DNA from: a virus
Lineage: Duplodnaviria; Caudoviricetes
DNA: 30,977 bases
Direction: 5' to 3' (one strand)
Virus record (IMG/VR): IMGVR_UViG_3300006033_000083
Coordinates: 1 to 30,977 of that record
Position 1 is the stretch's first letter, and each line of letters opens with the position of its first letter. Below the pieces are notes generated by a model. That model had not been told where the DNA came from, ran no database searches, and saw nothing but the letters and a program-made list of their open reading frames with translations. Position numbers and translations under genes: made by a program. Shown here one piece after another: positions 11,512 through 30,977 of the stretch.

Positions 11512-11981
11512 GCTACCACCCACACTATGCAATCGTTCCGGCAACGGCTGAGTTCATTGAGCACGTAATTGCAAATCTGCGCGATGACGATGCGGCTGAG
11601 GTGAAGGCACAATCTGGCATGCATCCGGCCATGGCTATTGGAACGAGTGTTGGCGCAAGCGAGCGCGTGTACGCTGGCCTTGTGGATGGCACAGCTATGT
11701 GCCTGTTCGGCGTTGCAACGGTTGATGGCCTTGATGGCGTTGGCTCGCCGTGGATGGTTGGCACTGACCTGGTGGTGAAACACCAGCGCAAATTCCTGCG
11801 TGAGTGTCACGGCGTTGTGGCTGATATGCTTGATGACTTTCGAGTGCTTGAGAACCACGTAGACGCGCGCAACACCACATCAATTCGCTGGCTTAGCTGG
11901 CTGGGTTTTGATATATTCGCAACAGTACCTCACGGCCCGTATGGGCTACCGTTCCACCCTTTCCGCATGGTGCGAGAGTAA
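11508..11981 (+). CDS. GNAT-fold protein (T7 gp13-like)
   Basis: LRDDDAAEV, LENHVDARNTTSIRWLSWLGF GNAT C-terminal motif; canonical position after nozzle. Confidence 0.8.
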   Translation: MSYHPHYAIVPATAEFIEHVIANLRDDDAAEVKAQSGMHPAMAIGTSVGASERVYAGLVDGTAMCLFGVATVDGLDGVGSPWMVGTDLVVKHQRKFLRECHGVVADMLDDFRVLENHVDARNTTSIRWLSWLGFDIFATVPHGPYGLPFHPFRMVRE

Positions 11982-12646: not shown

Positions 12647-14896
12647 GTGCCAAGAGTGCCGACATATGACCAGCCGCAAGCGAATGTTGCCGCGCTTCCC
12701 GGCGTTCGCCAGTCGATTGATGCGCCGGCAGCAGCTTTCGGCGTAGACACGCGCGCTGCGTCAGCAAGCCTTGCGCGTACATCGGCCATGCTTGATCGCT
12801 ATGCGGCGAAGAAGGCTGAAGAGGATGCCGAGGCTGCTGCATGGAACGCATACACACAATTCTCGAACGAGCAACGCGATTATCTGTACGGGCCTGAGAA
12901 GGGCTTATTCAACGCTAAGGGCGGCAATGCAATGGGCATCGCTGGCCGTGGCGCAAGCGAACTTGGCACCATGGCGCAAAAGATCAGCAGCACGTTGCCC
13001 GAGGCCGCGCGCATTAAGTTCGACTCGCTCTACCGCCGCCAGCTTGATGGCACGCTTGACAGCCTGTCGCGCCACGAGTCGGCTGAGCGTCGCTCGTTTT
13101 TTGAACAAACGGCCAAAGGCGTTGTGACTGGCGCAGCGAATGACGCGGCTGTGAACTACAACAACCCGAAATACATCGAAGCATCTGCCGACCTTGCGGT
13201 GATGGCGATGCGCCAGAACCTAGCCATGAGTGGCACCGCGCCCGAGCTTGTCGAAGCTCAGGTTGCTGCAACGCGCTCAGGCATTTGGCGTGCGGCTGTC
13301 ACGAGCGCAATTAAAGCCAACCCACTTGAGGCAAAGGCGCTGCTTGACGCAAACCGCGACAAGATGACCGCTGAAGATGCTGTTGCGTTGGAAACCGCGC
13401 TGAAGACGCCGCTGAAAGTAGCGCAGGCCAGTGCGGATACGGCCATTGCAACTCAGCGCGTTCGCTCGTCGTTGCCAGCTAATATCTCGCAGGGCATCGC
13501 GGCTGAGGCGCAGGCGCAGAATGTTGATGTCAGCGTGGCCATGACCATCGCAAACCTTGAGAATGCCAAGGGCGACCCGAACGCAAAGAACCCGAACTCT
13601 TCGGCGCGGGGCATTTATCAATTCATCGACGGCACGTGGAAAGCTATGGGCGGCACTGATGCTGACCGTGGCGACACTGGCAAGCAGATCGAGCTAGGCA
13701 TTCGCCACATCAAAGATAACCAGCAGAAGCTGACCGCGCAGCTTGGCCGCCCGCCTGCCGGTTGGGAGGTGTACCTTGCGCACCAGCAGGGCATCGGCGG
13801 GGCATCGGCGCTTCTGTCTGCCGCACCAGGTGAGCGTGCGGTTGATGCTTTGGCGCGTGCACTCAAGTCGCCCGAGAAAGCGGCGATGGCTGTTGTGAAT
13901 AACGGCGGCGACGTGAATATGAGCGCGCAACAATTCGCGAAGATGTGGGAGAAGAAATACAACGCGCGTGCGACGGGCGGCACCGAGATGACGCTTGCCG
14001 AAAGCCTGACGGTGGTGAAAGCGCTGGCGAACGGCGACCCCGAGCGTGAGGCTGCTGCTGTTGCTCAGGTAACAGCGCATTACGCGACGATGAAGAAGAT
14101 CAAAGAAGACGAGCAAGACGCCGCTGAGATGGAAGTCTATGACCACATCAACAAGACCGGCGGTATCGCCGGGGCACCTGCTGCCGCCCTGTCGAAGCTC
14201 GACCCGAAAACGCTTTACAGCATCCAGAAGTCGGTGAAGACGGAAACTGACTGGGAATATTACGACAGCTATATGGCGAAGACGCCTGCGGAAAAAGCTG
14301 TGGTGCCTGTGAGTGAGCTGCGTTCTAAGCTTTCCCCGACCTTAATGAAAGCAGCAATCGACGAGCGCGCTGAAGCTCGCAACGGCGGTGGCACAAAGCA
14401 GCCTTGGCTTGAGCAACGCGCGACGATCATGAAAACATTCGCGGCTGAGGCTGGCATTGTGTCTGGCAGCAGCACCGACTGGTCTGAAGGTCAGCGCAAG
14501 CAATACAACGCTCTTGCGCAATACATGCATGGCCGCATGCAGGAATACCGCGATGTAAACGGCAAAGAGATGCCTGAGAGCGACTTCCGGCGCGAGGCCG
14601 CAAAGGCGGTGTCGAAAGTCTATATTGATAACAGCAACCAAAGCCGTGGTCTTTTTGGCGGGCTGTTCACTGGCCTGCTGTCCTCGGGCGCGGTCTACGG
14701 GTTTGAAACCGGTGGCCGTGAGATCACTGAAGTCAAGCAGCTCCCTGAATCTGCGCGGCTTGATATTGAGGCCACACTGCGCAAACGCGGCAAGGCAGTG
14801 ACCGACGAGGCTGTGCTCGCTGTAGCGCGCCCGCTGCTGACTGGCCGCAAAGACCTTATCCTAAAAGCTATCGACGGAATCCCGAATGCAAACTGA
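12647..14896 (+). CDS. Internal virion (ejection) protein with lytic transglycosylase domain
   Basis: MPRVPTY start; SLT motifs IANLENA (catalytic Glu about aa 305), ARGIYQFIDGTW, YLAHQQG at about 13480-13970. Confidence 0.85.
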   Translation: MPRVPTYDQPQANVAALPGVRQSIDAPAAAFGVDTRAASASLARTSAMLDRYAAKKAEEDAEAAAWNAYTQFSNEQRDYLYGPEKGLFNAKGGNAMGIAGRGASELGTMAQKISSTLPEAARIKFDSLYRRQLDGTLDSLSRHESAERRSFFEQTAKGVVTGAANDAAVNYNNPKYIEASADLAVMAMRQNLAMSGTAPELVEAQVAATRSGIWRAAVTSAIKANPLEAKALLDANRDKMTAEDAVALETALKTPLKVAQASADTAIATQRVRSSLPANISQGIAAEAQAQNVDVSVAMTIANLENAKGDPNAKNPNSSARGIYQFIDGTWKAMGGTDADRGDTGKQIELGIRHIKDNQQKLTAQLGRPPAGWEVYLAHQQGIGGASALLSAAPGERAVDALARALKSPEKAAMAVVNNGGDVNMSAQQFAKMWEKKYNARATGGTEMTLAESLTVVKALANGDPEREAAAVAQVTAHYATMKKIKEDEQDAAEMEVYDHINKTGGIAGAPAAALSKLDPKTLYSIQKSVKTETDWEYYDSYMAKTPAEKAVVPVSELRSKLSPTLMKAAIDERAEARNGGGTKQPWLEQRATIMKTFAAEAGIVSGSSTDWSEGQRKQYNALAQYMHGRMQEYRDVNGKEMPESDFRREAAKAVSKVYIDNSNQSRGLFGGLFTGLLSSGAVYGFETGGREITEVKQLPESARLDIEATLRKRGKAVTDEAVLAVARPLLTGRKDLILKAIDGIPNAN

Positions 14897-17800
14897 CCTT
14901 GAGCGCTACCTGGCTGACGAAACTCCTACCGCGCCGGCGCAGCCAAAAACCAACCTTGAGCGCTACCTTGACGGTGATGACGCTGAGGCTTCGGTGCGTC
15001 AGTCGCTTACTGCGGTGGAGGCCACTGGCGTTACTCCGCAGCAGGCTGTTGAAGCGAAGCAACTCAGCAAGAAGCTGGGCATGCCTCCGGTTGTGGTTGA
15101 GGCAGACCTTGATGGCGCAAAGAAGCGCGCTGAACAGCAAGAGATTATCAGCGCTGCCCGCAAAGACCCTGACATTGAGTGGCTGATGCGCGACCCGAAT
15201 ATGGCGAAGGTGGCGCGTGGCGATGTCGGTTCGCTGACTAAGTTATCGGAGGTGGTCAAGTCCATCCCAAGCAGCATCCCGATTATTGGCCCTGTAGCCA
15301 CGGCCTATGGGTTCGGCATCGACGCAGCACCTTACATTGGCAACTCACTTGAGCGTGGTGTGCTGCGGGTTAAGCAGGGTGCCCAGCAGTTTATGGCTGA
15401 GTCAGCCCGGCGGGCGCAAGATGACCAGTCGCGAAGCTTTCTTGAGATACTACAGGACGCTCAAAATATTGGCGGCATTGCTGCAATGCCTATGCAGCTT
15501 GCATTGCCGAATGCTGCAACCCGCTACTTACAGTCGCGTTATGACAGCGCTGTTGGCGTTGACAACAATGCGATCGCTCAGCAGCGGATGCTTAGCGTCG
15601 GACAGACTGCTAACGAAATCAGCCAAATTGAGATGTCACCAGCGGCAACTCGGTTTCGGGAGGCGGTGCAGCAGGGTGAGTCTTCAGGTGGGTGGACTGG
15701 TGCGCTTTCTGCTGCCGCGAGCGACCCTCTAGGCGCGCTTGCTTTTATCGGTGAGGCTGGCCTTGAATCGTTCCCGCAGCTTGCGGCGATGGTCGGGATT
15801 ACCGCGGCTACAAAGAACCCGCTTGCCGGTGCAGCGGTGATGGGTGGCGCTTCTGGACTAACTGAGCGCTACGTTTCACCCGCTGAGTTTTTCCAGGACA
15901 AGGGTATAGACCTAAGAAATCCAGAGGCCGTAAGGGCAATTTTCAGCGACAAGGCGTTGCTTGACGAGGCACAGCAATACGGCTTCACGCGTGGCGCTAT
16001 CATTGGTTCTGTTGACGCCTTATCTGGCGGCATTGCTTCCCGCACGCTTATGTCGTCGCCGCTTGGGAATATGCTCGCTCAAATGCTTGTACAGACAACA
16101 AGTGCGGGCGCTGGTGAAGCTGGGGCGCAGCTAGCTACAAAGGGGAAGGTTAGCCCTGCCGAGGTTATCTTTGAGGCGCTTGGCGAGTTATTTACCGCCC
16201 CGGCTGAAGTCGCGACGCTTAACTCTCAGTACCGCAACCAAATACAGATAAGCCGCATCACCGCGAAGGTAGCGGTAAAGACAGCGAATGATGCGACCAA
16301 GGCTCGCGAAGAAGGTGCGGCTCTTGACGCTGTGGTTGAAACCGCAGTGCAAACACCGCTGCGTGAGCAAGACCCCGAAACATTCCGCGCGTTCATGAAG
16401 CAGGTCGCGGCGCGCACTGGCCGTGAGGATGTGAGTATTCCTGCGGATAAGCTTGTGGAGTATTGCCAAAGCGTCGGCCTTGACCCTTACAGCATCCCAG
16501 AAATTGCTGACGACCTTGCCGACGCGCATGCGAACGGTGAAGACGTTATCATTCCGCTTGATGCGTATGTGACCAATATCGCGCCCGACCATCATGCTGG
16601 CCTCGCGCCACACATCCGTGTCGATCTTGACAGCCTGACGCGGCAGGAAGCTGAAGAGTCCAGTGCGGCCTTTGAAGCGCTGGTGCAAGAAGAGAATGAG
16701 CGTATTGCCGCGGCGATGGCTGACGAGAACGTGGCTGCGGTCGAACAGGTCAAGCAGGATGCCAAGTCGCAGTATGTGGAGTCAGGCGCGTATGCACCCG
16801 AAGTGGCTGAGTTTGGCTCTATTAGCGAGAGTAAATTGTGGGGCACATGGGCGTCACGACTCGGTGGCGCGATTGGCACGGCGGCAGACCTCTACAATAA
16901 GCATCGCCCATTGCGGGTTGCGCCGGTCAATGAGGCAGCGCAGCTTCGTCAGCGCGTTGATGACCTTGAGCTTGATATTGCAGCGCTGAAGGCGCGCCGT
17001 GGCGCGAAGACATCTGACCCGTATTTGAAGCAGCGCGCAGCACAAGGCGCTGGCCTGCTTGAGTTCATTGCGCGCCGTGGTGGCATCGAAGAGTTTAGCG
17101 GTGAAATGAAATCGCGCGGTGCTGATAAGTGGCATCGCAAGTACCCAGGCATGCCAAAGCTGGTGCGGCCTGAGCGCGACCGTTCACAGTCGGCCATGGC
17201 GGGTATGGCTGGCGATAATGAATACACGGCGGATAGCGTTGCGCGCGCTGCGTGGGAGGCTGGCTACTTCCCTGAGTTCGCTGAGCGCCCGTCTATCAAC
17301 GATCTGTACGAGGCCATCGACCAAGAGCTTCGCGGCAACTTCCGCTTCTTGCAGCAGCCTGACAGCGCAACGGTTGAGCGCGAGCAATACCTTGACCAGC
17401 TTGACGAATATCTCGGTCGCTTAGGCGTTGGCACCGACGCGAAGATCGAGGACGTGAAGGCTGCTATCGACGCTGACCAGAAGCGCATGGCCGATGAAGG
17501 CGAGCTGTATCAGGAAGGGCAAATTGCGACCGAGAGTGAGGCGTTCAAGCGCTGGTTTGGTGATAGCAAGGTGATTGATGAGGATGGTCAGCCGCTGGTG
17601 GTTTATCATGGGACTACTGCTGACTTTGAAGCGTTTGACCGAGAACGCGCAAATCCTGAAAGCGACCTCGGAGCTGGGTTCTATTTCTCAAATACAACTG
17701 ACGATGTCGGCGTGAACTACGCTGGTTTTGGGCCTGACCTTACGAACAAAATAGAGCGAGAGGCCGAACGAATTGCGAGCGAAACAGACCGCGAGTACGA

Positions 17801-20800
17801 CGACCCTGATGTGGTAGATGAGGCGCGGAAGCGATTTGCCACGAACGAAGGGGCTACGGTTCCGGTATATCTTTCTATGCAAAATCCTGTGCAGATTGGG
17901 GGTGGCGCAGAAACGTATCTCGATCTTGAGCAGAATTACGACGAGGACGCCGACGAATATAGTGAGCCGACAGGGGCACTGGTGGATTTCATCGAAGGGC
18001 TGCGTCAGGTCGCGCCCGACTTCTATGATGCTGATGTTGAGCGGGCCGCCTCTGTTCTGTTTGAGCGAGGCTTAGATGGCGGTTTAAGCGCCTCTGAGGT
18101 TTTTGATGTACTAAAGAGTGAAGAAGGAGGCTTGCTCTACGCGACAAACGAGAATGGCGACTTGGCCGGAAATGAGCTGATTCGACGAGCGTTCGAGGCT
18201 GCCGGATACGATGGCTACATTGACCGTACTGTGAACCAGAAGTTCGGCAGTGAGCGCCGTACCGGCAATGCCATGGCCGGCATGAATGAAGACACTGTTC
18301 ACTACGTCGCCTTCCGCCCCGCTCAAATAAAATCCATATTCAATCGTGGCACGTTCAACCCGAACGACGCGCGGATATTGTATCAAGACGGCAAGCGCGG
18401 CAGCTACAACCCTGAAACCAACATCACCCGCTTCTTCAAGGCGCGTGACCTTAGCACGATGCTGCATGAAGCCGGGCACCGCTGGCTCGAATCGTTCGCG
18501 GATGTGGTCGAGGATGTGCAGAACAACCTTGAGCGCCAAGACCTGACCGATGAACAGGTTGCCGGCATGCAGGGGTTGCTGGCTGACTGGGACAAGACGC
18601 TGAAGTATCTCGGCGTAAAAGACCGCAGCGAGATTGGGCGCGAGCAACACGAAACATTCGCTCGCACGGTTGAAGCCTATTTCATGACGGGCAAAGCGCC
18701 GAGCATTGAGCTGCGCTCGGTATTCAGTCGCTTCAAAGACTGGCTGATGGCTATCTACAAAGACCTGCGCGCTCTGAATGTGCAGATGACGCCTGAGATC
18801 ACGGGTGTGCTTGACCGCATGTTTGCGACCGACGAAGAGATTGCGGACGCTGAGCGCCTTGCTGGCTACGAGGGCGTGAAGATACCAGGCGCGACGGCTG
18901 CCGAGATTCGCACGCTTGAGAAGCTTACTGAAGAGGCCACTGCTGAAGCTGAGGCACAGCTTATCCCGAAGGCGATGGCACCTATCCGCCGCGTGCGTGA
19001 AAAGTGGTGGAAAGAAGAATGGAACCGTGAGGCTGAGCAAGTCGAGGCTGAGGTTCGCCAGCGCACTGAATGGCGCGCGCTTGAGCTTATTCGCGGCACC
19101 AAGGGCGACGGTGAGGATGTTGTAGCTCCGGTGAAGCTGAACCGCGACATGATGGTGCTGCTGTTTGGCGAGGGCGTAAAAGACTTCTTGCCGCGTGGCG
19201 CACTAGCCAAAGGCGGCGTTGACCCCGACATGGCAGCGCAGAAGCTTGGTCTGACGAACGCGCGCGAACTATTTGATGCCTTGTCGTCGGTGAAAGATGT
19301 CAAGCTAAAAGATGTGGTGCGTGCGGAAACTGACGCGCGCATGAACGCCAAACACGGCGACATTCTGAACGATGGTTCAATTGAAAGCGAGGCGGCTGAC
19401 GCTGTGCGCAACGAGAAGCATGCGCAGAAGATGGCGATGGAGCTGCGTGTGTTGCGCCGCTTGGGTGGCGACAAAGAGATTCGCAAGGTGGCTGAGCGCC
19501 GTGTTGCTCAGGAAGGTGCGCAGAACGCGCAGACCTATAAGAGTGAAGCGGTTGAGGCTGACAATGCTGCTGAGCTTATGGCGGCGCAGGAGGCTGGGCG
19601 GCTTGCAAGTTTCGCCCGCCGCTATGATCGTGAGGGCGCTCGCACTGCCAACTGGTACATGCGTGACATCGACCCTAAGAACATTCGCCGCATGGCTAAG
19701 GAAACCATTGGCAAGGTGCCGGTGCGTCATTCTGGCAAGGTCGCGGTGTATGCGCAGGCCACTGTTCGCTTCTCGAATATGTCGCGCAAGGCGTTGCAGA
19801 AGCGCCAATACGAAGAGGCGGCTGAGTACAAGTACCGCCAGCTATTGAACCACTACCTCTACATGGAAGCGCGCTCTCTACGTGATGAGATGGATAAAGC
19901 ATACAAGCGCCTTGAGCCGTTGCAGCGGGCTGAGAACAAGATCGGCGGCAAGTACGACCTCGACTATATGCGCATGGGGCAATACCTCATGGCGCGCACG
20001 GGCTTGTCGGAAGTGCCGGTGGATGTGACCGATGCGGAATTTGCCGAGTGGCGAGCTGGCCTGAGCGATGAAAGCAAGGCTGAGCTGATGATGTTCCAGC
20101 TCATTCCTGCGGATGTGGCGAACTACAAAGACCTGACGGTTGACCAGTTCCGTGACCTTGCCGCTGGCCTGAATAATCTGATTACGGTAGCGCGCGGCAA
20201 AAAGGAGCTTGAGCTGAACGGTGAGAAGTTTGCCCGCGACCAGGTGGTTGGTGAGCTGACCGGCATTCTAGCTGAGCGTGCACGTGAGCGTGAAACCGCA
20301 CAGATCGGCGCGACCGAAGAAGAAAAGTTCGCTGGCAAGCTCCTGTCGCTTGGTTCGGCTCTGACCCGCGTTGAGGCGTGGGCGTATAAGATGGATGGCG
20401 GCAAGCAAGATGGGCCATTCACCACATACCTTGTGCGACCCGTGATGGACGCGCTGGGCGTTTACAAGACGCAGAAGACGAAGCGGCTGGCTGAGATTGT
20501 TTCTATTATCGAGCCGTTGCGCGAACAAATGCTGAAGCCGCAGCAGATCAATGCGCCTGAGTTAAAGGCCGCTGGGCAGAACCGTGCACCATCATTCGAG
20601 AACAAAGGCAAGCTTATTCATGCCATTTTGCACACCGGCAACAAGAGCAACCGCGACAAGCTGCTTGGCGGCTATGGGTGGGGTGAGCCTGTCTACCGAC
20701 AGCGCGTGACGAAAACTGGCCGCCTGTCAGTTAGCCGCACCGGCCAGCCTATCATGGAGTTCGTCGGCATCGACACGAGCAAGTGGGATGCATTCGTATC

Positions 20801-22472
20801 GCGCATGTTCCGCGAGGGTGTGCTGACGAAGGCCGACATGGATATGGTGCAGGCCATTTGGGATTTGAACGAAAGCCTGAAGCCGGATGCGCAGGCGGCG
20901 CACAAAAAGATGTTTGGCTATGAGTTCGCTGAGGTAACTGCCGAACAGATGGAAACGCCCGTGGGCACATACCGTGGCGGCTACATGCCAGCGATCATCG
21001 ACCGCGACCTGTCTATTGACGGGGACAAGCGTGCGGCTGACGAGGCGCTTAGCAATACGCAGGCGGCCAATATGTTCCCCACCACTGGCCGCGGCTTTAC
21101 CAAGCAGCGTAGTGAGTTCTACCGTGAGCCGCTTCAGTTGAACCTGATGCTGATTCCGTCGCACGTCGATAAGGTGCTGCGTTTCACCCATCTTGAGCCG
21201 ACCATCAAAGAAACCGCCAAGATTGTGAACGACCGCAATTTTATGAAGTCGCTGCGTGAGATGAACCCCGCGGCGCATGGCAGCATGCTTGTGCCTTGGC
21301 TTCAACGCACGGCGCGGCAGGTAGTGGAAACACCAGCTACCGATAAAGCTGGCCAACTGATGGGTGAGTACCTTCGCGGTGCTCGCAAGCGCATGGGTAT
21401 TGCGCTGATGGCCGGTAACATCGTCAACGCGTTGCAGCAAGTTACTGGCCTTTCAAGCGCGCGCGCCGCTATCGGAAAAGGGTACATGAAGCGAGCGCTG
21501 GTGAACTATGTGCGTGACCACAGCGGCGTATCAACCGAAGTGCTTAGCCGTTCGGAGTTCATGCGCAACCGCTTGGGTAGCTCGGCGGTGGATATGATGG
21601 CGAACATCGAAGAGATTTTGGAAAGACCTGGCAACCTTAGGAAGCTGCAACGCATTGCCGACCGCCACGGATACTTCTTGCAAACAGGCGCACAGCGCAT
21701 TGTGGATGTTATCTCATGGTCTGCCGCATACGACAAAGCGGTTGGGCGGGGTAAGAGTGAAGCTGATGCCGTGTTCTACGCTGACAGCATTGTTCGGCGC
21801 ACGCAGGGTGACTTCTCGCCTGAGAACGTGTCGGCATTCGAGGCTGGCTCAGCTCTCAAGCGGCTGTTCACGCAATTCGCCAGCTACTTTAACACACAGG
21901 CAAATATGCTGGGGTCTGAAGCGGATGTGATATTGCGGCAAGACACAGGGTGGAGCGGTAAGCGCAACCAGCTCTTCGGCCTGTATTTCTTTGGTATGTT
22001 TATCCCCGCTGTGTTGGCTGAAGCTATCGTGCAGGGTGCGCGCGGCGAGCTTGGCGACGAAGATGATGACGGCTACTTTGACGACTTCCTTGAGTTGTTC
22101 CTCGGTTCGCAGGTTCGTTTCACTGCCGCAATGGTTCCGATAGGCGGGCAAATTGCTATGGCAGTGCTGAACGCGTGGAACGACAAATGGTACGATGACC
22201 GCATATCAACTTCGCCAGTTATCTCTGGTGCGGAAACTTTCGCCCGCTCATTCAAGTCGGTTCCCATGGCGCTGTTCGGTGATGGCGATAAGAGCATGGC
22301 TGTCAAAGATGCCACGATGGCTGTGAGCCTTGCAACTGGCCTGCCCCTCTACCAGCTATCGAAGCCGGTGGCGTATGTGGTTGACGTGGCTGAGGGCGAC
22401 TCGCGACCGCAAGGCATTGTGGACTGGATGCAGGGCTTGATTTCGGGGCGTGATGGCACTGCGAAGAAGTAG
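14886..22472 (+). CDS. Giant internal virion polyvalent protein (LPD22-like N-terminus, ART-PolyVal-like domain, zincin HExxH metallopeptidase, helical C-terminal body)
   Basis: 2528 aa in the T7 gp16 position; FKRWFGDSKV..PLVVYHGT..GAGFYFS..VPVYL..GYDG..QIKSIFNRGTF (17520-18380); STMLHEAGH (HExxH at 18465-18479). Confidence 0.85.
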   Translation: MQTDLERYLADETPTAPAQPKTNLERYLDGDDAEASVRQSLTAVEATGVTPQQAVEAKQLSKKLGMPPVVVEADLDGAKKRAEQQEIISAARKDPDIEWLMRDPNMAKVARGDVGSLTKLSEVVKSIPSSIPIIGPVATAYGFGIDAAPYIGNSLERGVLRVKQGAQQFMAESARRAQDDQSRSFLEILQDAQNIGGIAAMPMQLALPNAATRYLQSRYDSAVGVDNNAIAQQRMLSVGQTANEISQIEMSPAATRFREAVQQGESSGGWTGALSAAASDPLGALAFIGEAGLESFPQLAAMVGITAATKNPLAGAAVMGGASGLTERYVSPAEFFQDKGIDLRNPEAVRAIFSDKALLDEAQQYGFTRGAIIGSVDALSGGIASRTLMSSPLGNMLAQMLVQTTSAGAGEAGAQLATKGKVSPAEVIFEALGELFTAPAEVATLNSQYRNQIQISRITAKVAVKTANDATKAREEGAALDAVVETAVQTPLREQDPETFRAFMKQVAARTGREDVSIPADKLVEYCQSVGLDPYSIPEIADDLADAHANGEDVIIPLDAYVTNIAPDHHAGLAPHIRVDLDSLTRQEAEESSAAFEALVQEENERIAAAMADENVAAVEQVKQDAKSQYVESGAYAPEVAEFGSISESKLWGTWASRLGGAIGTAADLYNKHRPLRVAPVNEAAQLRQRVDDLELDIAALKARRGAKTSDPYLKQRAAQGAGLLEFIARRGGIEEFSGEMKSRGADKWHRKYPGMPKLVRPERDRSQSAMAGMAGDNEYTADSVARAAWEAGYFPEFAERPSINDLYEAIDQELRGNFRFLQQPDSATVEREQYLDQLDEYLGRLGVGTDAKIEDVKAAIDADQKRMADEGELYQEGQIATESEAFKRWFGDSKVIDEDGQPLVVYHGTTADFEAFDRERANPESDLGAGFYFSNTTDDVGVNYAGFGPDLTNKIEREAERIASETDREYDDPDVVDEARKRFATNEGATVPVYLSMQNPVQIGGGAETYLDLEQNYDEDADEYSEPTGALVDFIEGLRQVAPDFYDADVERAASVLFERGLDGGLSASEVFDVLKSEEGGLLYATNENGDLAGNELIRRAFEAAGYDGYIDRTVNQKFGSERRTGNAMAGMNEDTVHYVAFRPAQIKSIFNRGTFNPNDARILYQDGKRGSYNPETNITRFFKARDLSTMLHEAGHRWLESFADVVEDVQNNLERQDLTDEQVAGMQGLLADWDKTLKYLGVKDRSEIGREQHETFARTVEAYFMTGKAPSIELRSVFSRFKDWLMAIYKDLRALNVQMTPEITGVLDRMFATDEEIADAERLAGYEGVKIPGATAAEIRTLEKLTEEATAEAEAQLIPKAMAPIRRVREKWWKEEWNREAEQVEAEVRQRTEWRALELIRGTKGDGEDVVAPVKLNRDMMVLLFGEGVKDFLPRGALAKGGVDPDMAAQKLGLTNARELFDALSSVKDVKLKDVVRAETDARMNAKHGDILNDGSIESEAADAVRNEKHAQKMAMELRVLRRLGGDKEIRKVAERRVAQEGAQNAQTYKSEAVEADNAAELMAAQEAGRLASFARRYDREGARTANWYMRDIDPKNIRRMAKETIGKVPVRHSGKVAVYAQATVRFSNMSRKALQKRQYEEAAEYKYRQLLNHYLYMEARSLRDEMDKAYKRLEPLQRAENKIGGKYDLDYMRMGQYLMARTGLSEVPVDVTDAEFAEWRAGLSDESKAELMMFQLIPADVANYKDLTVDQFRDLAAGLNNLITVARGKKELELNGEKFARDQVVGELTGILAERARERETAQIGATEEEKFAGKLLSLGSALTRVEAWAYKMDGGKQDGPFTTYLVRPVMDALGVYKTQKTKRLAEIVSIIEPLREQMLKPQQINAPELKAAGQNRAPSFENKGKLIHAILHTGNKSNRDKLLGGYGWGEPVYRQRVTKTGRLSVSRTGQPIMEFVGIDTSKWDAFVSRMFREGVLTKADMDMVQAIWDLNESLKPDAQAAHKKMFGYEFAEVTAEQMETPVGTYRGGYMPAIIDRDLSIDGDKRAADEALSNTQAANMFPTTGRGFTKQRSEFYREPLQLNLMLIPSHVDKVLRFTHLEPTIKETAKIVNDRNFMKSLREMNPAAHGSMLVPWLQRTARQVVETPATDKAGQLMGEYLRGARKRMGIALMAGNIVNALQQVTGLSSARAAIGKGYMKRALVNYVRDHSGVSTEVLSRSEFMRNRLGSSAVDMMANIEEILERPGNLRKLQRIADRHGYFLQTGAQRIVDVISWSAAYDKAVGRGKSEADAVFYADSIVRRTQGDFSPENVSAFEAGSALKRLFTQFASYFNTQANMLGSEADVILRQDTGWSGKRNQLFGLYFFGMFIPAVLAEAIVQGARGELGDEDDDGYFDDFLELFLGSQVRFTAAMVPIGGQIAMAVLNAWNDKWYDDRISTSPVISGAETFARSFKSVPMALFGDGDKSMAVKDATMAVSLATGLPLYQLSKPVAYVVDVAEGDSRPQGIVDWMQGLISGRDGTAKK

Positions 22473-28410: not shown

Positions 28411-28634
28411 TGTGGGCTTGGGTGATCGGCACGAAGGCCGGACGTATTCTTGCTGGGTCGGTTGCGATAATCGCAATGCTCGGGCTTGTGTATCTAAAGG
28501 GCTACAGCGACGGCAAGCAGTCGGCTGTGGCAAAACAAAAGGAGGCCGACGATGCGGCGCGTAAACGTATTGAGGCTGTTGAGCCTGCTACCCCTGACTC
28601 TGTTATTCGCAGCCTGCGCGAAGGAACCTTCTAG
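28410..28634 (+). CDS. Inner-membrane spanin (Rz-like)
   Basis: TAATG coupling to endolysin; N-terminal TM followed by helical periplasmic segment. Confidence 0.7.
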   Translation: MWAWVIGTKAGRILAGSVAIIAMLGLVYLKGYSDGKQSAVAKQKEADDAARKRIEAVEPATPDSVIRSLREGTF

Positions 28635-28821
28635 CGCGGTGACGCCAAAGCTGCGCGTGTACTCACGTGATGTGCAGGCGCGTGCCGCTGACGAGCTGCA
28701 AGCGATGCCTGCCCCATGTGCTCCTGATGCGGTTGCTGGGAATTGCAGCGCAGTGAAGCGCCTGGTCGTGGACTATAAGACCACGCGTGACGAGATTCGG
28801 GCGATCAAGAAAAAGCGCTAG
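28552..28821 (+). CDS. Outer-membrane spanin lipoprotein (Rz1-like)
   Basis: Signal peptide with lipobox LFAAC; overlaps the 3' end of the i-spanin in another frame. Confidence 0.75.
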   Translation: MRRVNVLRLLSLLPLTLLFAACAKEPSSAVTPKLRVYSRDVQARAADELQAMPAPCAPDAVAGNCSAVKRLVVDYKTTRDEIRAIKKKR

Positions 28822-28918
28822 GTTTATCGGGGGTGGTGGCCCGTCAATTTAACAACGCCACTGCATTTGGACGGCCTTTGCTTTGCGCTTAGGCACCCCC
28901 GATTGCCCACAGGAGAAT
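28822..28918 (-). ncRNA. Candidate structured RNA downstream of int
   Basis: Perfect 10-bp stem 28826-28835/28894-28903 enclosing two hairpins and a possible pseudoknot; minus-strand promoter TTGCGG (28950-28945)-17 nt-TATACT (28927-28922). Confidence 0.5.
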
Positions 28919-28951
28919 GTGAGTATAATCCTAACGGGCATTCCCCGCAAT

Positions 28952-30046
28952 TCAAATCTGCATCCGCGCGGCGACCATGTTGGCAACCTGCGTTGCGCTG
29001 GTGCGGTGCGACTCGTCGATCAGGTGGGCGTAGCGCTTGGTGGTCTGTGGCGACTTGTGACCAAGAAGCCCGCCTATCTGTTCGAGCGACAAGCCAGCGG
29101 CCAGCGCTTCGGATGCGAAGCTGTGGCGCAGGTCGTGCAGCCTGAAGTCTTTTAGGCCAGCTCGGTCGCGCACTTTGTACCAGCACCGTTGTGGCCGGTT
29201 CGATATTCCTATGAGCCTGCCGTCTAGTGATGGCGTAGCCTCGATGATGGCGAGCGCTTGCGGCGGCATGTAGATGCGCTTCTTGCCGGTCTTGCTGTCT
29301 GGCAGCTCCAGCCACTCACCACGCAACCACTCTCGCCTTGAGCCGGTTATCTCGCTGACGCGCGCGCCTGTGAGGGCGAGTAGCCTGATGACCGCCACGC
29401 CTTCGGGGTGCTTGGGATGGTAGTGGTCGAGCGCCTCGGCCAGCCGCTTGAACTCATCGGCGCTGAGGTAGCGCTCGCGGTTCTCTTCGCCGTCAAGCAC
29501 GAAGTTCTTTGTCGGGTTGTAGTGTAGCAGGCCGCCTCGTATCTCTTCGCGGAACACGGCGGCGATGGCACCGATGGTCATGTTGACGCTTGAGATGGCA
29601 TATTTGCTGGCGAGCTTGTGGGCAACGCGCTCGATCTGAGGCGCATCAATATCGACCATGCGCTCGCCGCCGATGTGCTTGCCCCATATACGGAAAGCGA
29701 ACCGGTAGACGTGGGCGCTTGTTGGTTTCAGCTTGGCCTTAGCCCAAAACCTCTGGACTGATGCGTTGAAGGTGGGGGAGGCTATTGCATCCTGCCGCTT
29801 CTTGCTCGGGTCTTCGCCCATGGCAGCGCGGGCGTACCAGTCGCGGGCTTTCTTGCGCGCCTGCTCAATGGTGATGGCTGGCCACTCACCAAGCTTGGGC
29901 TTGCGCTGCGTGCCTGACTGGGTGCGGTAGTAGAGATACCATGCTTTGCGCTTGGCAAAGACGCGAAGCTGAAGACCTGGCACTGCTGCATCGCGCAGCA
30001 CGTCGCCGTTGGCTGCCGCGCGGATGGCGGCGTTGGTTATGGTCAG
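28952..30046 (-). CDS. int: Tyrosine integrase with N-terminal arm-binding domain (probable CTG start at 30046; first GTG at 30001)
   Basis: Catalytic TGARVSEI, HDLRHS, LGHKS, TKRYAH; arm domain PGLQLRV...WYLYYR...LGEWPAITIEQAR; frame stays open upstream as LTITNAAIRAA with AGGA SD 8 nt before CTG. Confidence 0.92.
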   Translation of the reverse strand: MTITNAAIRAAANGDVLRDAAVPGLQLRVFAKRKAWYLYYRTQSGTQRKPKLGEWPAITIEQARKKARDWYARAAMGEDPSKKRQDAIASPTFNASVQRFWAKAKLKPTSAHVYRFAFRIWGKHIGGERMVDIDAPQIERVAHKLASKYAISSVNMTIGAIAAVFREEIRGGLLHYNPTKNFVLDGEENRERYLSADEFKRLAEALDHYHPKHPEGVAVIRLLALTGARVSEITGSRREWLRGEWLELPDSKTGKKRIYMPPQALAIIEATPSLDGRLIGISNRPQRCWYKVRDRAGLKDFRLHDLRHSFASEALAAGLSLEQIGGLLGHKSPQTTKRYAHLIDESHRTSATQVANMVAARMQI

Positions 30047-30058
30047 TTGCTATTTCCT

Positions 30059-30264
30059 GCTGGTCACGCACTGGTCACGGGTGGTGGGTAGTGCGGCGTA
30101 TCGTAGAGTATCCACAGCCCAATGGAATCAATGACTTAGTAACTCCAAGTAAGCTGCGGTTATCTACAGTAATTAACCCTTTCTTAATAGTCAAGCAGCG
30201 ATTCGTTGTGTGGGCGCAGGCACTTAGCTGGTTGATAGCAAACGCTGGTCACACACTGGTCACG
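30059..30264. other. Probable attP: tandem arm-type repeats flanking an AT-rich core with IHF site
   Basis: GCTGGTCACGCACTGGTCACG (30059-30079) and GCTGGTCACACACTGGTCACG (30244-30264); IHF consensus AATCAATGACTTA at 30126-30138. Confidence 0.75.
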
Positions 30265-30482: not shown

Positions 30483-30649
30483 GCTGACCTCCCCAAGCCT
30501 TGCAGCTTCCAGCCGTTTTTAGCGGCAATGCCCTCGGCCATCTTGCGTGCCTGCCATTCATTCACGGCGTGCAGCACACGTGCTTCAGGAAACCACTGGC
30601 CGGTAAAGGCGCGGCGCAGGAAGGTGGCTCTGTATGCCTGGCGTGGCAT
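30479..30649 (-). CDS. Hypothetical protein (56 aa, MPRQAYRATF...)
   Basis: TAATG coupling with the upstream HTH gene and overlap with the downstream start. Confidence 0.55.
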   Translation of the reverse strand: MPRQAYRATFLRRAFTGQWFPEARVLHAVNEWQARKMAEGIAAKNGWKLQGLGRSA

Positions 30650-30930
30650 TAGCCAACCAGCCCGTCGATGACCTTCACCTGCACCATAAGCACAGCGCGG
30701 CGAGCCTTGAGCCAGCGCACGACCAGCCACGGCTTTTTCTCTGCGGTGACTTCAGGGGTATGCGTGACAACAGTCGGTTTCGTCTTGATGCCCTTGCCGG
30801 ATAGGTAGTTGTAGACAGACTGCGGGTCGCGACCAAGCGAGCGTGAGATGCTCGGTGCAGGTTGGCGAATGATGATTCGGCGGATAACTTCGTAGCGTTC
30901 TGCGAGGGTATAGCGTCTATAATTATTCAT
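30649..30930 (-). CDS. HTH DNA-binding protein
   Basis: YTLAERYEVIR...PSISRSLGRDPQSVYNYL helix-turn-helix; SD AGGAGA upstream. Confidence 0.7.
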   Translation of the reverse strand: MNNYRRYTLAERYEVIRRIIIRQPAPSISRSLGRDPQSVYNYLSGKGIKTKPTVVTHTPEVTAEKKPWLVVRWLKARRAVLMVQVKVIDGLVG

Positions 30931-30959
30931 AAAAAATTCTCCTGTTGGTTAAAAGCACG

Positions 30960-30974
30960 TTGAGATAATCACAA
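30960..30974. promoter_or_regulatory. Palindromic operator TTGAGATAATCACAA upstream of the HTH gene
   Basis: Matches the repeated 15-mer; 30 bp upstream of the minus-strand ATG 30930. Confidence 0.7.
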
Positions 30975-30977
30975 CAC

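Follow-up and report, generated by a model that had tools for sequence, protein, structure and literature searches.

A structured element downstream of the integrase gene of a temperate podophage may encode a small RNA complementary to early-gene ribosome-binding sites

The window analyzed here (the whole stretch of 30,977 nucleotides) spans 31 kb and belongs to a temperate podophage whose genes follow the epsilon15/BPP-1-type order: terminase, head-tail adaptor, capsid, tail, a large polyvalent protein, endolysin, an Rz-like protein and a leftward tyrosine integrase. The virus record is linear, with a completeness of 72%. The polyvalent protein (14886-22472) has 2,528 amino acids and carries LPD22 and ART-PolyVal domains. 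The last late gene (28552-28821, plus strand) likely encodes an o-spanin, overlaps the Rz-like gene and converges on the integrase gene, int (28952-30046, minus strand). Between the two stop codons, at 28821 and 28952, lies the 130-bp gap that is the subject of this report. A 93-amino-acid, orphan HTH-like gene (30649-30930, minus strand), here called gene 30930, is the first of a leftward unit that runs toward an xis-like gene and int. Its product matches HTH_23 with an E value of 0.019, below the cut-off; one low-confidence structural neighbor in a GcrA-family cluster provides a lead only. Both gene 30930 and the last late gene are near-orphans, and a tRNA search found none.

A capsid search yielded a companion record, G001, that is 100% identical to the window across 13.3 kb and adds 14.9 kb past its left end. 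The early region of G001 encodes a primase, a helicase, a Cro-like protein, a cI-like XRE repressor, exonuclease VIII, RecT and an excisionase-like protein. The end of G001 overlaps the right end of the window by 17 nt before folding back, and it provides the TTGACC -35 hexamer for gene 30930. The window and G001 parts have equal depth in sequencing run X1, where no contig bridges the two, and the junction rests on the 17-nt overlap. The fold-back (19130-19239 of L456, the locus numbering used below for sites beyond the window) is long and perfect, is centered on the operator upstream of gene 30930, and occurs also on a low-depth 65-nt contig in X1. It is probably an assembly artefact.

The integrase probably starts at a non-canonical CTG codon near 30046, ~15 codons upstream of the called GTG; its relatives have 366 amino acids and align with the N-terminal extension. 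The closest of these stand at 60% and 56%, and the best matches in cell genomes, at 30-44%, are mostly from Alphaproteobacteria. Two 21-nt arm-type repeats beginning at 30059 and 30244 delimit the likely attP (30059-30264), upstream of int, and a related phage has an att site annotated upstream of its int gene. The attP region gave no host assignment among five genomes. It holds the sequence TTAA-N7-TTAA near 30172, which has the form of a CtrA box.

The gap element is real and non-random. Read from the minus strand, it comprises a 10-bp stem, P1, the longest of the element, which is drawn from the fold (5' strand 28894-28903, 3' strand 28826-28835); a P2 hairpin with a 2x2 A internal loop and a GCAAA loop, seen in both sequence and fold (28875-28893); and P3, whose 5' strand is CCGUC (28870-28874). 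The P3 3' strand, GACGG, is followed immediately by GCCAC (together 28836-28845), which can pair with a GUGGC loop (28857-28861). The preliminary description of this DNA had named these three stems and the crossing GUGGC/GCCAC pair, and all are in the sequence. Because the nested minimum-energy fold keeps P1 and P2 and replaces P3 with GUGGC/GCCAC, the pseudoknot is possible only. When the gap was shuffled 3,000 times with its dinucleotides kept, 28 shuffles had a Watson-Crick stem of at least 10 bp, and one had such a stem around two crossing 5-bp helices. Among 703 real 130-nt windows, the gap is the sole one with such a stem and a 5+5 pseudoknot. The core folds slightly better on the minus strand (z score -3.1) than on the plus strand (-2.2), and the unpaired positions of the minus strand are A-rich (14/28).

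The same description had reported no U-tract. A U5CUU run is nevertheless present at 28814-28807, 11 nt beyond P1; together with the 3' strand of a further helix, P0, it makes up a candidate 3' end (28807-28822). P0 has 7 bp and pairs with 28936-28930, in int read-through RNA only. No canonical terminator was called in the gap.

These features could mean that the element is a cis-acting 3' end structure (a terminator, a stabilizer or a sib-like decay element) of the int mRNA, the late mRNA or both, and that the complementarity to Shine-Dalgarno (SD) sequences described below is incidental. The element does lie between convergent genes without a canonical terminator, P1-P3 can form with Watson-Crick pairs on either strand, and in int read-through RNA P0 would close the element just before the U5 run and bury the SD-complementary segment. 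However, P1 has 10 bp, and a stem of this length is short for an RNase III site. Lambda sib, which is also structured and lies downstream of int, loses its link to int when attP recombines. In this phage, in contrast, the arm-type repeats put attP upstream of int, so integration would not part the gap element from int, and a sib-type switch of the kind raised earlier is unlikely. A cis-acting role would also leave unexplained the promoter, the box over its -10 and the target-specific segment that are presented below. We regard this explanation as unlikely, although a 3' end role may exist in addition to one in trans.

A second possibility is that a small RNA from the gap acts through its structured core, as a protein decoy, an antitoxin-like pseudoknot RNA, a ligand sensor or a ribozyme, and not by pairing. 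The compact stacked fold with its possible pseudoknot exceeds what an RNA that acts by seed pairing needs. However, the core matched no Rfam family, including the models of known self-cleaving ribozymes and pseudoknot riboswitches, and the consensus HDV-like, pistol and twister layouts did not fit on inspection. Such a function would also not account for the match to three leaders set out below, and we consider it rather improbable.

A leftward promoter, TTGCGG-17-TATACT, had been proposed just past the int stop, and its hexamers are there. The -35 hexamer (28945-28950, minus strand) lies one base past the stop, and a 17-nt spacer leads to the -10 hexamer (28922-28927). Under a matrix built from seven other candidate promoters of the same phage, it ranks 12th of 275,130 positions. 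A strict sigma-70 scan missed it because the -35 hexamer matches at three of six bases only. Usual promoter spacing puts the predicted +1 near 28915 (range 28914-28918), and the base at 28915 is a pyrimidine. Promoters without a -7T are treated in a part of PMC8407463. Two other candidates in the gap scored poorly: a plus-strand promoter antisense to int, with a perfect TATAAT (28924-28929) that overlaps the minus-strand -10 (rank 849), and another one on the minus strand (rank 1,347).

Two families of repeated sites bear on how this promoter might be controlled. Class A is a 17-bp palindrome, RTTGMGAWWATCGCAAY, with ten strong copies in the window (110, 2297, 5867, 8572, 12614, 22491, 26376, 28177, 28461 and 30959; a weaker one is at 11907) and further sites at L456 4505, 5861, 8009, 16387 and 17445. 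A consensus made from three boxes finds ten sites at two or fewer mismatches, where 15 shuffles give 0.2; the family also came up in an unbiased search for palindromes. The copies overlap the -35, the -10 or the +1 of candidate promoters, or sit inside lysis genes. The G001 sites, which were outside the training set, include two between cI and cro. We infer that class A is the operator of the cI repressor. Sites occur at early and late promoters and within the endolysin and spanin genes, a spread through the genome that resembles the phiC31 repeats or mycobacteriophage stoperators.

Class B has copies at 94, 2254, 5824 and 22474 that end directly before the TTG of the -35 of rightward late promoters. 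A class-B box (28919-28935, minus strand) covers the spacer and -10 of the gap promoter, likely a repressing position; 2e-4 such sites are expected in the gap. The likeness of this box to the one at 2254 had been noted earlier; it holds and extends to the four-copy family. At three or fewer mismatches, 2254 is the only match in the window besides the box itself (0.17 expected). In leave-one-out tests three of the four training copies rank first, and the box at 28935(-) is the best non-training hit with a 14-nt matrix and ranks seventh with a 17-nt matrix. Its geometry differs from the activating position at the four late promoters. Class B is probably an activator site that at the gap promoter takes a repressing position. 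No class-A operator lies on the gap promoter; the gap box was considered as one and rejected (rank 305).

The 5' end of the predicted RNA contains an anti-SD seed region (28906-28918, minus strand) with the core CUCCUGU(G) at 28915-28908. The preliminary description had paired this region with the SD region of gene 30930 (30936-30948, minus strand), and the complementarity of 12/13 nt is confirmed. A 13-nt duplex is another matter: the most likely +1, 28915, leaves 7+2 bp of it, and pairing from this start has 7-8 contiguous bp. The complement of the predicted first seven RNA bases, ACAGGAG, occurs five times on both strands of 45.9 kb: in the RNA template, at one coding site, and in the SDs of gene 30930 and of two genes beyond the window, at L456 8051 and L456 16429. 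The shared 7-mer ends exactly at the predicted most likely +1. Directly behind one of the predicted target genes lies a 263-amino-acid early protein with short tandem repeats (L456 8352-9143, phrog_7964).

The three genes are each first behind a leftward TTGACY promoter with a class-A operator over its -10 (30959-30975 for gene 30930), and their leaders have a common layout, in which the operator is followed by 12-13 nt and ACAGGAG. The 7-mer is found in three of five class-A-controlled leftward first genes (L456 4572 and RecT 17475 lack it) versus none of 59 other start sites. The corresponding p of 2.4e-4 holds if the leaders are independent and overstates the case because all three may descend from a single cassette, duplicated, in place of independent events. 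The objection that AGGAGA is common, and the match therefore generic, does not hold: among 64 hand-picked start sites, 11 are of the AGGAG type, and the two further matching bases are present in only three of these. The other eight, including cI, differ at the next base. From the sequences, the SD match appears specific to the phage's own operator-controlled leaders.

When the full-length RNA was co-folded with the 64 start regions, the three leaders ranked 1-3 with the +1 set at 28915 or 28918, and 1, 2, 5 or 2, 3, 5 with the +1 at 28920 or 28921; the cI leader ranked 22nd of 64 for predicted binding. Leader-only duplexes separate the three targets less sharply (ranks 3, 7, 8; 1, 2, 5; and 3, 5, 6). 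The longest Watson-Crick runs between seed and targets are 8-10 nt. Opening the seed is predicted to cost 1.6-1.8 kcal/mol when the RNA starts at its own promoter and 6.3-6.5 when it is read through from int. The promoter-like hexamers, stems, complementarity and leader layout are read from the sequence, whereas the binding ranks and the accessibility of the seed are predictions. An imperfect inverted repeat surrounds the -10, and the seed is also one of its arms. In this genome, an automated pipeline retrieved the operator family as well as the seed; among ten distant relatives, it gave weak 7-mer matches to two or three predicted start sites in five, of which one is incomplete and none has the operator-leader layout.

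It is conceivable that stems and SD match arose by chance, or that they are relics of a duplicated leader cassette, and that no functional RNA is made. The element is a single sequence without a homologue, and its features were picked after the sequence had been viewed. However, separate null expectations apply to the structure (1/3,000), the seed (CTCCTGT in 3/3,000 shuffles of the gap), the promoter (its rank given above) and the box (2e-4), and the plus-strand ACAGGAG of the gap is neither preceded by a class-A operator nor followed by a start codon at a suitable distance. We judge this explanation very improbable.

We give about an even chance to the proposal that the gap encodes a small RNA acting in trans, by which leaky early operons are silenced in the lysogen. 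An RNA of ~95-110 nt would be made from the minus strand, starting near 28915; its 5' end, predicted to be single-stranded, would cover the SDs of the first genes of three early units and block their translation. The block could be polar on the rest of each unit: the xis-like gene and int, the exonuclease and RecT genes, and small early genes. If cI bound to the class-A palindrome is the first lock on early lytic genes during lysogeny, the RNA would be a second one, and its promoter, which has no class-A site, could fire in the lysogen. A factor that activates late genes could bind the class-B box over the -10 and thus turn the RNA off when late transcription starts. The core formed by P1-P3 and the pseudoknot might take over the role of a terminator hairpin in protecting the 3' end. 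The earlier suggestion of an immunity RNA is strengthened by the seed match, but its single target gives way to three operator-controlled first genes.

A more specific version of this proposal is that a new pseudoknotted immunity RNA reads ACAGGAG as a private SD "barcode", spares cI and is turned off by the late activator; we offer it tentatively, as possible but doubtful. If it is true, the silencing of several repressor-controlled operons by one RNA, through a common SD extension, would represent a new wiring of the lysis-lysogeny decision, with an RNA layer that mirrors the genome-wide operator network. It would also suggest a search that needs genomes only: one would look for a rare SD variant common to several operator-linked leaders and for an intergenic transcript that begins with its complement.

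An anti-SD RNA could instead serve mainly to regulate host mRNAs, or it could shut off early genes when the phage grows lytically and not in the lysogen. Seeds of this kind are promiscuous, the corresponding locus of kin phages has another candidate RNA with an anti-SD hairpin, and the factor at the class-B box could be of either sign. However, the seed is specific to the phage's own operator-controlled leaders, and the gap box lies outside the activating geometry of the sites at 94, 2254, 5824 and 22474. This use of the RNA seems to us fairly improbable.

The proposed silencing RNA can be compared with C4, P4 CI and sar, each of which controls one transcript according to parts of PMC5320573, PMC12197685 and PMC4825925. 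C4 of P1 and P7 (RF01695) is a trans-acting structured RNA that occludes the ribosome-binding site of a phage mRNA and keeps lysogeny (sections of PMC5320573 and PMC12197685). It has three stem-loops, pairs through its loops a' and b', is processed by RNase P and controls an antirepressor mRNA (a section of PMC5320573). For the gap RNA, occlusion in trans of ribosome-binding sites on mRNAs of its own phage is a prediction. Unlike C4, it has one 5'-terminal seed outside P1 and a promoter that stands alone, may form a pseudoknot and has three predicted targets, and it does not match the Rfam C4 models. A C4-style RNase P cut at the base of P1 would remove its seed. The RNA-based immunity of P4 CI, as outlined in part of PMC4825925, uses an RNA that is cut from the transcript it controls and pairs with seqA and seqC, which flank the RNA itself, causing termination. 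The gap RNA shares with P4 CI, which acts on early/replication transcripts, a proposed immunity against early transcripts. In contrast to P4 CI, however, its predicted targets lie at least 2 kb away behind promoters of their own, and its phage also has a cI-like protein repressor.

The P22 RNA sar lies on the strand opposite its only target, to which it has long complementarity. It has its own promoter and blocks translation initiation of a phage regulatory gene (part of PMC12197685). The gap RNA differs in having seeds of 7-10 bp that would act in trans on three distant leaders. It would work like C4 or sar but is a member of neither family. A short anti-SD seed and multi-target logic are typical of the alphaproteobacterial RNAs MmgR/suhB and cuckoo and of Hfq-dependent sRNAs with a 5' seed. 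MmgR/suhB and cuckoo form simple hairpins, with CCUCC in the loops, and have a terminator, whereas the gap RNA has a multi-helix core, no canonical terminator, phage targets and no Rfam match. STAXI is a tandemly repeated pseudoknot near integrase genes, often with UUCG loops (part of PMC2864571); the gap element, by contrast, is present in single copy, has no UUCG and matches no Rfam family.

The preliminary description had suggested a comparison with Rfam and a collection of homologues for covariation. No Rfam family matched; the only hit was Pseudomonadales-1, on the plus strand, with an E value of 6.1. No homologue of the element was found in any of the phage, plasmid, viral and bacterial searches run, and there is therefore no covariation signal to support the stems. 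Blastn gave three short chance hits in phages and one in plasmids. Two pattern scans of viral sequences, the second covering 4 of 64 parts, listed 38 and 120 stretches, none with the remainder of the element. A pattern for the operator-SD cassette returned 18 stretches, two from G001 and 16 single, unrelated ones. A covariance model, built from a single sequence and thus of low sensitivity, found nothing in 56 and 16 other viral records, reached best E values of 4.4 in 99 loci and 1.4 in 41 stretches, and hit one of 151 bacterial genomes, inside a coding gene. A topology descriptor selected six other regions among 164 downstream of int, none alike by eye. The literature consulted, mostly without subscription papers, holds no account of the gap RNA or of a phage anti-SD RNA that acts on several operons. 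The part of the supplements of a catalogue of phage structured RNAs that was searched (PMC10690425) gave no hit, and the remainder may bear on novelty.

Kin phages (L459; L462 1442-1557; and L035, past the integrase match) carry a two-hairpin RNA candidate with UUCCUCCCU loops and a U-tract terminator. It lies near the 3' end of int, facing int, and has sub-threshold scores for suhB/MmgR, Atu_C7 and sX13. In four of five records, the complement of its 9-nt loop occurs at the element itself only. The promoter layout in the kin phages resembles a flipped version of that in the gap, and a 10-mer is common to it and positions 28939-28948 of the window.
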